A stretch of DNA of 64,000 nucleotides from Octopus vulgaris. Lineage: Eukaryota. A program made the position numbers and the translations under genes. Below are positions 3,997-45,343 of this stretch, piece by piece (within the stretch, counting starts at the first letter, position 1; every line of letters begins with the position of its first letter). The notes beneath the pieces were generated by a model. The model was not told where the DNA came from, did not search any database, and saw only the letters and a program-made list of their open reading frames with translations. The DNA is taken from the NCBI GenBank assembly GCA_951406725.2, contig OX597840.1:19592001-19656000 (forward strand), given 5' to 3'.

Positions 3997-4592
3997 GGCG
4001 GCGAGCTGGCAGAATCGTTAGCACGACGGGCGAAATGCTTAGCGGTATTTCATCTGCCGTTACGTTCTGAGTTCAAATTCCGCCGAGGTCGACTTTGCCT
4101 TTCATCGTTTCAGGGTCGATAAAATAAAATTAGTACCAGTTACGCACTGGGGTCGATATAATCGACTTAATCCGTTTGTCTGTCTTTGTTTGCCCTCTCT
4201 GTGTTTAGCCCCTTGTGGGTAGTAAAGAAATAGGTATTTCGTCTGCCGCTACGTTCTGAGTTCAAATTCCGCCGAGGTCGACTTTGCCTTTCATCCTTTC
4301 GGGGTCGATAAATTAAGTACCAGTTACACACTGGGGTTGATGTAATCGACATAATCCGTTTGTCTGTCCTTGTTTGTCTCCTCTGTGTTTAGCCCCTTGT
4401 GGGTAGTAAAAAAATAGGTATTTCGTCTGCTGTTACGTTCTGAGTTCAAATTCCGCCAAAGTCGACTTTGCCTTTCATCCTTTCGGAGTCAATAAAATAA
4501 AAATTAGTACCAGTTACGCACTGGGGTTGATGTAATCGACTTAATCCCTTCCCCCTAATTTGAGGCCTTGTGCTTCCAGTAGAAAGGATTAT
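3997..4592 (+). mobile_element. tRNA-derived SINE, family 2, with internal ~185 bp tandem modules
   Basis: ggcggcgagctggcagaatcgttagc head and gagttcaaattcc B box; body repeats starting at 4044, 4233 and 4417; core gcctttcatcctttcggggtcgataaattaagtaccag resembles the Meta-SINE domain. Confidence 0.8.
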
Positions 4593-5210
4593 TGCCCTGA
4601 GTCGATTAATGCCTTGTGAGTGAATTTGGTCGATGGAAACTGTGAGAAAGCCCAGATGTATATATTAATAGCACGGGGCCGTTAATTTCAAAGAGAAGCA
4701 GTTTGTTGATTGCATGGATCGCAGTATATGACTGGTACATATTCTCTCGGCCCTGAAAGGGTGAAAGCCAGAGTTAATCTAGTCAAATATAAACTGAGAA
4801 CGTTATGAATGGAAAAAAACACCACTAGGGATTTTGTTCGACGCACTAAACATTCTTCCAGTTCGCTGCCTCGCTAATTGCTAATTTTAAAAACATGTAA
4901 CTATGTATATTTTTTTTATTTACATTTATAATTACTTGTTTAAAGTAATTATAATTACAGATATTTATTATAAATTTATGAGGAAATATTTAAAGAATTA
5001 AAAAAAAGTTGGGAAAATGAATAATTAAAATAAATGCGTGGCTGGGTGGTAAGAAGCTTGCTTCTCAACCACATGGTTCTGGGTTCAGTCCCACAGCGTG
5101 GCACCTTGGGCAAGTGTCTTCTACTATATCCTCGGGCCGACCGAAGACTTGAGAGTGGATTTGTTGGACGGAAACTGAAAGAAGCCCTGCTTATATATAT
5201 ATATATATAT

Positions 5211-5840
5211 ATAATAGTTATCGCCATACTAATATGGCATTCTTATAAAAATAAGAATAAAGCTGTCCGCTTATTAGCTCCATGAGGCCATTGCCTTAAG
5301 TTAGCTATTTGATACACAAACTGTATCCATATAACCTTCGAACAAGGGAGGTCAGTCGCTCCACACTACTTGACCGGCAGCTACAGACGCGTTTCGGGGT
5401 ATTACCCCTTTTCAATGTAGCGTAGCCAGACCAGTAGGTGTCGCTTCTGACAATCTCTGTTCGAAGGTTTTATTTACCTAGCTTCGGTGGAATACATCCA
5501 CTTGTTTTCAATAATAGAAATATTAAAATTACTAAGTCTCTCTAAAAGAGAACAACGGCAGCATTTCCGGAAAATAATAGTTATCGCCATACTAATATGG
5601 CATTCTTATAAAAATAAGAATAAAGCTGTCCGCTTATTAGCTCCTTGTTCGAAGGTTATATGGATACAGTTTGTGTATCAAATAGCTAAATTAAGGCAAT
5701 GGCCTCATGGAGCTAATAAGCGGACAGCTTTATTCTTATTTTTATAAGAATGCCATATTAGTATGGCGATAACTATTATTTTCCGGAAACGCTGCCGCTG
5801 TTCTCTTTTAGAGAGACTTAGTAATTTTAATATTTCTATT
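5211..5840 (-). mobile_element. Hammerhead-bearing non-autonomous element (retrozyme/Penelope pLTR-like): 363 bp unit plus partial direct and inverted copies
   Basis: ataatagttatcgcc at 5211 and 5574 (period 363); inverted copy at 5645-5840 spans the unit junction; (TA)n on both sides. Confidence 0.8.
5380..5421 (-). ncRNA. Minimal type I hammerhead ribozyme, U3-A8 variant core
   Basis: gctaca TTGAAAA gggg-taata-cccc GAAA cgcg TC tgtagc: 6 bp stem I, 4+ bp stem II, palindromic helix III (ACGCGT), GUC cleavage triplet. Confidence 0.8.
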
Positions 5841-6384
5841 ATATATATATATATATGTATGTATGTATGTATGTGTGTATACACACGTATATATAAATAT
5901 ATATATATATGTGTGTGTGTGTATGTGTGTATGTCTGTGTGTTTTCCTCCACCACCACTTGTCAACCGGTGTCGGTGTGTTTACAACCCCGTAACCTAAC
6001 AGTTCAGCAAAAGAAACCCACACACTAAGTATCAAGCTTTAAGAAGAAAACAAGTCCTGCGGTCGATTCATTCGACAAAAAAATTCTTCAAGGCGGTGCT
6101 CCAGCATGGCTGCAGTCAAGTAAAAGATAAATGGTAAATGACAAACGATTTGGTTCAGAACCACAAAAAAACCTTTCGGGATTACGGCCCCGTCAGATGA
6201 CCGTGAACTTTAGAGGTGGCTTCCAACACTGAAACAGGGTTCCCTTTTTAACGAACGTCCCTTGGGGGTCTTAGAATCATTAAAAACGCATAAGCCCTTT
6301 AATTATTTTAATGGATTGTGAAGCCCTAAGATGCAGCTTATTTATATCTGATTCCGGTAACTGTTTTGCGCACACAATCAGCCG

Positions 6385-40507: not shown

Positions 40508-40562
<55 letters not shown>

Positions 40563-40565
<3 letters not shown>

Positions 40566-41035
40566 TAATAGTTATCGCCATACTAATATGGCAGTCTAAA
40601 TATAAGACTAAAGCTGTCGCTGATTAGCTCCAAGAGGCCATCGCCTCTAGCTAGCTATATGACACACGAACCTGCGTCCATTACAACCTTCGAACAGGGG
40701 AGGTCAGCCGCTTCACCTTGCTAGTCAGACATCTGCAGACATGTTTCAGGGTTGCTGCTCTTTATCAATGCAGCGTAGTCAGACTCAGCAGGTGTCGCTA
40801 CTGACCGTCTGTTCGAAGATTTTATTTACCTAGTTACAGTGGAATACATCCACTTGTTTTCAATAATAGAAATATTAAAATTACTAAGTCTCTCTAAAGG
40901 AGATTATGGCAGCGTTACTGGATATTAATAGTTATCGCCATACTAAAATGGCAGTCTTATAAATATAAGACTAAAGCTGTCGCTGATTAGCTCCAAGAGG
41001 CCATCGCCTCTAGCTAGCTATATGACACACGAACC

Positions 41036-41036
<1 letters not shown>
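40563..41036 (-). mobile_element. Second subfamily of the ~360 bp hammerhead element (1.3 tandem units)
   Basis: gttatcgccatacta at 40571 and 40931 (period 360); homologous along its length to 5211-5643; flanked by (TA)n and (TTA)n. Confidence 0.8.
40733..40773 (-). ncRNA. Minimal type I hammerhead ribozyme, U3-A8 variant core
   Basis: ctgca TTGATAA agagcagcaaccct GAAA catg TC tgcag; ACATGT palindrome; one mismatch in stem II. Confidence 0.7.
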
Positions 41037-41562: not shown

Positions 41563-41766
41563 ACTCTTTAACTCTTTTACTTGTTTCAGTCATTTGACTG
41601 CGGCCATGCTGGAGCACCGCCTTTAATCGAGCAACTCGACCCCGGGATTTATTCTTTTGTAAGCCCAGTACTTATTCTATCGGTCTCTTTTGCACCAGCA
41701 CCGGTTGTCAAGCAATGCTAGGGGGACAAACACAGACACACAAACACAGACACACAAACACACACA

Positions 41767-45114: not shown

Positions 45115-45160
<46 letters not shown>

Positions 45161-45343
45161 ATAAGGTTCGCTTTTTTAAGAACATGGATTCTATTGAATG
45201 TATGTAACAATTATGAACTGTTCCATGATACTGTTTATTATAAATTTTTTTGATAAGGTTCGTTATTTCAAGAACCGAAACATGCAAAATTAAAATTTAT
45301 CTAATATAGTGGTATTTTCAAACTTCTATTTTACAAATATATA

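Follow-up and report, generated by a model that had tools for sequence, protein, structure and literature searches.

Metazoan non-LTR retrozymes are noncoding elements with units of 150–450 bp, 350–390 bp in mussel (PMC7229834; bioRxiv 10.64898/2026.07.22.740005). Their link to Penelope-like elements (PLEs) is also known: Xenopus retrozymes match PLE termini (pLTRs), and eight of the nine Xenopus dimers described in the same preprint showed no cleavage (bioRxiv 10.64898/2026.07.22.740005). PLEs carry hammerheads of their own. In Schistosoma mansoni, the Cercyon PLEs contain minimal hammerheads with a U3-A8 pair, with about 1300 matches in the genome, and low activity is described for PLE minimal hammerheads (PMC4209133). 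Natural U3-A8 variants have been reported elsewhere too (PMC3088659), in a paper that cites Przybilski and Hammann (2007) for the activity of U3-A8 in vitro. Insertions of PLEs with a C-terminal GIY-YIG domain (Neptune/Nematis type) show partial tandems and inverted arms, and just one of their ends has a tail (PMC8557442). In the anole PLE this pattern marks two internal start sites of the reverse transcriptase (RT), and insertion in vitro was not impaired when the hammerhead was mutated (PMC11167929).

Here we describe a repeat from Octopus vulgaris that occurs twice in a stretch of 64,000 nucleotides (the window; contig OX597840.1, positions 19,592,001 to 19,656,000). We consider it quite probable that this is a non-LTR retrozyme, that is, a noncoding dispersed and short-tandem repeat whose units each carry one U3-A8 type I hammerhead, whose multimeric RNA would cleave itself through hammerhead dimers, and which is probably copied into (TA)n in trans by a Penelope-like RT-endonuclease. 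It resembles the described metazoan retrozymes in unit size, in its single type I hammerhead per unit, in the short palindromic helix III, in its range from monomers to multimers, in its highly paired fold and in its co-occurrence with PLEs (PMC7229834; bioRxiv 10.64898/2026.07.22.740005). It differs from them, as far as these accounts go, in that U3-A8 is fixed across a young clade with C3-G8 and U3·G8 relatives, and in that PLE-type ends can be mapped at two sites and the candidate helper's terminal repeat shares no detectable homology with the unit. The compensated U3-A8 pair is common to the octopus family and Cercyon (PMC4209133). Unlike Cercyon, the octopus element is non-autonomous and tandem; its stem II has 4 bp, its stem I is long and extended, and older families in the octopus genome record how its core changed.

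The earlier note implied that U3-A8 was new, which it is not, the pair having been reported in PMC4209133 and PMC3088659. With the retrozyme class (PMC7229834), the PLE link (bioRxiv 10.64898/2026.07.22.740005) and natural U3-A8 pairs all known, the surprise is modest. What our analysis adds is the direction in which the core was swapped, a U3·G8 subfamily and counts of covariation based on a tree. Our search of the literature on U3-A8 and U3·G8 and on cephalopod retrozymes found no paper on the octopus family, although the supplements of PMC4209133 and PMC7229834 may list related motifs; a search on U3·G8 subfamilies and a history of one or two origins found none either. The main text of a 2026 repeat annotation of an octopus uses neither "hammerhead" nor "ribozyme".

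The repeat unit and its hammerhead

The copy at 40563–41036 had been described as 1.3 copies of a homologous 360 bp unit, and it does consist of one full unit and a partial second one that is 96.5% identical to the first (Table 1). Its homolog at 5212–5644 is 83.5% identical over 437 columns.

Table 1. Features of the two retrozyme insertions and of a PLE remnant, in window positions
Feature	Position	Strand	Remarks
Full 360-bp retrozyme unit, subfamily B1	40563..40922	-	RNA sense = minus; fold z = -6.85
Partial second unit, 114 bp	40923..41036	-	Variable 5'-truncated end adjoins (ATT)n; no hammerhead
(TA)n target	40510..40562	.	Adjoins the fixed 3' end
Tail, ~63 bp, delimited by the family's two fixed 3' ends (unit ~360 and ~300)	40860..40925	-	
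Type I hammerhead	40733..40773	-	Predicted cut between 40738 and 40737
Stem I, CUGCA/UGCAG	40773-40769 with 40737-40733	-	
Core UUGAUAA	40768-40762	-	U3 = 40768, A8 = 40763
Stem II	40761-40758 with 40751-40748	-	Private A·C mismatch at 40759
GAAA	40747-40744	-	
Helix III palindrome ACATGT	40739..40744	.	Predicted partner: the palindrome of another copy (dimeric hammerhead)
Hairpin agtcttat/ataagact	40953..40972	.	Intact in the second unit; first-unit copy (40593-40609) with a 3-bp deletion
Subfamily-A homolog, 1.2 units	5212..5644	-	3' end at unit ~363 beside (TA)n
Subfamily-A hammerhead	5381-5420	-	Core UUGAAAA; U3 = 5415, A8 = 5410
Subfamily-A stem I, CUACA/UGUAG	5420-5416 / 5385-5381	-	Palindrome ACGCGU
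Subfamily-A hairpin attcttat/ataagaat	5239-5258		
Inverted second arm of the subfamily-A insertion	5643..5842	+	Ends at the other fixed site (unit ~300) beside (TA)n
5'-truncated terminal-repeat remnant of the candidate helper PLE (781-aa family)	45158..45340	+	U3-A8 hammerhead core 45250-45256, U16.1 decayed; (TA)n flanks

All parts of a type I hammerhead are present, namely U4, G5, A6, A9, G12, A13 and A14, the A15.1-U16.1 pair, H17 and three stems with stem I open. The earlier note had listed structure-preserving differences between the two copies, and both forms of stem I (ctaca/tgtag and ctgca/tgcag) and both helix III palindromes (ACGCGT and ACATGT) could be located, with the hammerhead on the minus strand; the cores do differ at position 7. 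Pair 10.1-11.1 covaries as well, being G-C in one copy and A-U in the other. The hairpin was described correctly as to sequence, yet at 40563–41036 it is intact only in the second, partial unit. Three changes between two related copies are, however, weak evidence for selection on RNA, because the step between ACGCGT and ACATGT amounts to two CpG-type transitions and because perfect hairpins can be co-corrected at the level of the DNA. The copy itself is likely inert: it carries a single hammerhead where other copies of the family have two to four, and its stem II has A·C at a site that is G-C in most copies of the subfamily.

The Rfam hammerhead models gave no match up to E 10 at either window copy in local scans, and among the 150 of 300 matches listed from a scan of the whole window all were driven by microsatellites. 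A match to Rfam is not a defining biological feature of a hammerhead.

The genome (2.8 Gb in 227 contigs) contains thousands of copies. As queries, the two window copies drew 2861 and 1587 candidates, of which 40 of each were scored. A motif pattern that left positions 3, 7 and 8 and the helix III loop free matched 2225 times, and its reversed control not once, so a chance origin of the motif is excluded. The core is U3-A8 in 2178 of these matches (97.9%, by subtraction), C3-A8 in 20, U3-G8 in 14 and C3-G8 in 13. Since C3 occurs in 33 matches and G8 in 27, only 0.4 C3-G8 cores would be expected under independence; the 13 observed therefore point to separate families. Old copies are under-counted, because the pattern needs an intact stem II. 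Among the 100 matches listed, the helix III loop is palindromic in 98, and all four palindromes occur (GC, AT, TA and CG). With a noncoding unit, one type I hammerhead, and dispersed as well as tandem copies, the repeat falls in the 150–450 bp class.

Covariation and the history of the 3-8 pair

A larger alignment with a computation of covariation had been proposed as the check on the two-copy comparison. Ours holds 180 units, including relatives of four diverged copies; 169 of them were grouped by hand from the tree into 12 subfamilies, and 11 rows were omitted (eight misaligned or truncated arms, three unassigned). Across 13 hammerhead pairs and 12 consensuses, 7 of 156 cells are unpaired, compared with 56–68 in neutral simulations on the same tree, and under none of three rate models did any of 20,000 runs reach 7 broken cells or fewer. 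Some of these consensuses rest on two to six copies and break stem pairs (E2, E3 and T1). Extra Watson-Crick pair types number 8 against 1.6–3.3 in the neutral runs (P 0.0003–0.01), and 10 of 10 core columns are invariant compared with 89 of 249 overall. Positions 3 and 8 form a Watson-Crick pair in every consensus (U-A in 11 of the 12, C-G in the remaining one).

Individual copies give a similar result. In 18 real copies, picked for an intact motif, positions 3 and 8 are always paired, 94.8% of cells are paired and both sides have changed at 9 of 16 pairs, against 1–2 in slid controls; further pair types were not above shuffles in these copies (79/500). Over the whole unit, RNAalifold finds 82 pairs, 26 of them with at least two Watson-Crick types. 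At the level of the family, selection for RNA structure is what these alignments establish, as the earlier note had claimed. Such selection acts on source elements and not on the truncated copy at 40563–41036 from which the claim was made. Selection may act on cleavage rate as well.

The objection that ACGCGT and ACATGT differ only by CpG changes fails at this level, because AT precedes GC in the tree at the palindrome of helix III. At stem I, the variable site is a G·U wobble rather than A-U in most subfamily-A copies, and it is through this wobble that the change runs. As a self-duplex the palindrome is predicted to have between −6.0 and −9.7 kcal/mol, compared with −3.9 and +0.2 for two non-palindromic controls.

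The unit as a whole folds into a long rod with the hammerhead at its tip, and the z score against shuffled sequences that Table 1 gives for the full unit is −8.47 in the subfamily-A copy. Folded as a circle, the monomer is highly self-paired (64%; z −5.5 and −6.2). The antisense strand folds about equally well against shuffles (−6.5 and −4.8 vs −6.2 and −5.5); hence the polarity of the element rests on the motif and on the insertion ends.

The tree has the shape of a ladder (C, E, T, B, G, A). Copies diverge from their consensus by 8% (C), 11% (E1), 8% (T), 2% (B1) and 1.4% (A), values that are biased low because best matches were sampled. Family C has C3-G8 in 31 of 36 copies, and so does the more distant family D in 20 of 26; decay to U3-A8 was found in none of the 62 aligned copies of the two. 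U3-A8 is the state of all 11 younger subfamily consensuses. With D as outgroup, the alignment makes U3-A8 a derived and fixed trait of the young clade. That it is a family trait and not a product of decay agrees with the earlier note and with its prevalence among the genome-wide matches. The canonical C3-G8 consensus that would have spoken against a family trait belongs to the older sister families and not to this one, and it was likely the standard pair of these older branches that U3-A8 replaced.

Family I, a third old family, whose stem I takes another form (CUGUG/CACAG), complicates this history. Among 28 independent insertions, 14 have U3·G8 and 10 have U3-A8, and these two groups are set apart by 14 linked sites of 210 at p < 0.005 in a tree from which positions 3 and 8 were omitted. 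In our first sample of the family the query favoured U3·G8 (17 of 33 rows); by an unbiased pattern (n = 25) there are 17 copies with U3-A8, 5 with U3·G8 and 3 with other cores. The U3-A8 subfamily of family I carries A·A at 10.1-11.1. By an approximately unbiased (AU) test, a clade uniting IA with the young subfamilies is rejected (p 0.001), and one uniting all of family I with them is not (p 0.15). On this evidence there were either two origins of U3-A8 by way of a wobble, or a single origin after which one group slipped to U3·G8, and we dropped a firm claim of two origins. Under either history, at least 14 dispersed copies descend from a U3·G8 source. In subfamily T we also considered the C3·A8 copies (7) and the U3·G8 copies (4) as subfamilies of their own; ordinary decay fits them.

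Family D (L207–L236) is the oldest relative we found. Its helix III is longer (ACCAG-n-CUGGU), and the helix would therefore have been shortened to the 6-nt palindrome in later families. At one locus (L093) a D copy lies directly upstream of a C copy. Two further loci (L296 and L298) are about 82% like family C, both with C3·A8 and with paired stem I variants (CCAUG/CAUGG and CCACG/UGUGG), and perhaps represent another old subfamily.

One could also argue that element and helper are as we propose, and that the hammerhead is a weak or non-cutting module whose fold is kept by PLE binding or RNA protection, with tandems arising from linear read-through and not from circles. Such a module would explain how a U3·G8 subfamily could amplify, and it would be in line with the dispensability of cleavage for anole PLE insertion in vitro (PMC11167929) and with the low activity of PLE minimal hammerheads (PMC4209133). 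It is the main rival reading, which we nevertheless hold to be rather unlikely: the ten catalytic columns have stayed invariant over about 40% divergence, no consensus has lost the 3-8 pair, and the palindrome has been kept through four sequences, which fits the need for an active dimer.

Insertion ends and a candidate helper

In 86 unique insertions we could place 140 RNA-sense 3' ends, of which 129 fall at two sites about 63 nt apart (69 and 60), while the 5' ends are scattered. The flank is TA-rich at 107 of the 140. Both ends could be classed in 44 of 54 two-armed insertions, and in 42 of these the insertion uses one of each site. In subfamily A both ends finish in CTATTAT. The earlier note had both window insertions begin at the same unit position next to (TA)n; their ends are indeed homologous, yet the position is one of two fixed sites. 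Two fixed 3' ends (the tail), 5' truncation, inverted arms and a microsatellite target make up a footprint of the PLE type. As in the GIY-YIG PLEs, copies are 5'-truncated, tandems are partial, the 5' arm is inverted, just one end has a tail, and there are two internal RT start sites and (TA)n or AT-rich targets (PMC8557442; PMC11167929). Unlike these PLEs as described, the octopus repeat is noncoding and its tail is about 63 bp instead of 30–40. Moreover, the start site in the anole assay is the same for both strands, whereas octopus two-armed insertions nearly always have one of each.

A search of the genome for GIY-YIG domains gave 148 matches, many of them in frames of 781 aa; other PLE families are present too. 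One locus (L139, 245–5455) holds a complete element, made up of terminal repeats, a 479-aa frame and, downstream of it, an RT and GIY-YIG frame with a Cx4Cx2C linker (Neptune/Nematis type as defined in PMC8557442). The 479-aa frame overlaps the 781-aa RT-GIY-YIG frame in another phase, an arrangement possibly read by frameshift. The long 3' region of this element contains repeated TGATGACGTC motifs. Among seven copies the 781-aa frames are 96.5–99.7% identical. The hammerhead of this young PLE has 1212 motif matches, most with U3-A8 and ACAUGU, and of 40 displayed 39 are U3-A8. The element ends at (TA)n at two sites 40 bp apart, the outer of which finishes in CTATTAT, and inverted pairs have one of each end in 6 of 6 informative cases among 7 fetched.

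The unit and the 781-aa PLE family have no significant homology (best E 0.08), and only the 7-nt end motif is common to them; other matches between them, including a resemblance of the two tails in reversed orientation, are at chance level. This sets the octopus unit apart from the Xenopus retrozymes as reported (bioRxiv 10.64898/2026.07.22.740005), and it means that what ties retrozyme to PLE is the footprint, from which we infer the helper role. When the listed hammerheads on the first 122 Mb of contig C1 were compared by eye, those of the PLE nowhere came within 10 kb of those of the retrozyme. In the sole chimera that we saw (L137, 2280–4970), an arm of the retrozyme faces one of the PLE head to head across a spacer of about 160 bp, possibly one chimeric integration; the spacer resembles sequence beside three other retrozyme loci (L060, L099 and L013). 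A second candidate (L133) is no chimera and consists of two insertions tail to tail in one (TA)n.

Several smaller observations concern PLE hammerheads. The remnant in the window has a second core fragment at its 5' edge. Just downstream of one PLE copy (L145, 5850–6200) there are three canonical C3-G8 hammerhead-like motifs in other sequence. Older variants of the PLE hammerhead on C1 have another loop II and another cleavage triplet (GUU or GUA) and retain A8 in 99 of 100 listed.

Could the unit be a detached terminal repeat (solo pLTR) of an autonomous PLE that our search did not find? The PLE-like anatomy of the insertions and the pLTR matches of Xenopus retrozymes (bioRxiv 10.64898/2026.07.22.740005) would fit such an origin, and the GIY-YIG matches that we looked at were 32 of the 148. 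Ten of the 86 insertions span at least two units, however, and their head-to-tail runs reach five units with no coding DNA between. Nor does any flank of a fetched copy run into the 781-aa PLE except at L137, and the sole pair spaced as a parent PLE might be (L207/L208, at a distance of 5.2 kb) turned out to be a local duplication that contains no RT frame. We therefore consider this origin very unlikely.

That the repeat is satellite-like DNA spread by recombination, its paired changes produced by CpG decay, AT bias and DNA-level repair of palindromes, is scarcely credible and largely refuted by tree-based covariation and insertion ends: it could accommodate the two CpG-type transitions, the AT direction of C3-G8 to U3-A8 and the good folding of both strands, but not CpGs that were gained (AT before GC), swaps by transversion (between G-C and C-G in stem I, between UA and AU in helix III), the absence of decay to U3-A8 from all 62 old copies of C and D, or dispersed copies with fixed 3' and variable 5' ends.

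A proposed cycle and its wider bearing

If the repeat is a retrozyme mobilised in trans, source loci with at least two units would be transcribed from the minus strand. Two hammerheads would then pair via the 6-nt palindrome, releasing 360-nt monomers that are probably circularised. The PLE protein would nick (TA)n and prime both strands at two internal sites, giving partial tandems and inverted arms. Covariation would build up because only sources with a working fold leave descendants. High hammerhead activity may not be required, given that the U3·G8 subfamily amplified and that its U3-A8 sister has A·A at 10.1-11.1. Among the runs that contain the repeat, none is on record as RNA. Contigs from three runs that we guessed to be RNA cover the unit in all 30 bins, compared with 4, 4 and 8 of 29 bins of the unique flank; no contig matched the flank at 95% or above and a repeat sums many loci, so that we do not count this coverage as evidence of expression.

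A more far-reaching scenario is speculative, and we would not expect it to hold as a whole. The genome would then hold a fossil record of how a ribozyme active site evolved, U3-A8 having arisen repeatedly from C3-G8 families by way of a mobile U3·G8 wobble, with the PLE converging on U3-A8 and ACAUGU because its RT favours a slower or protein-gated hammerhead, and the two target strands would be primed from two sites of a circular RNA in one concerted step.

Natural C3-G8, U3·G8 and U3-A8 cores in one homologous scaffold allow a direct test of a catalytic base-pair swap. Because a retrozyme as young as this one (about 1.4% divergence) has end signals in common with a near-intact PLE, the proposed trans-mobilisation of retrozymes by PLEs could be reconstituted. 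Descriptors that demand C3-G8 would miss the family, as Rfam missed both window copies, and hence counts of animal retrozymes are likely underestimates.

The window contains other repeats too. Those flanking the two retrozyme insertions (41590–41760 and 5040–5190) we take to be SINE-like, and a 184-bp unit is present in 2.7 tandem copies at 4044–4547.
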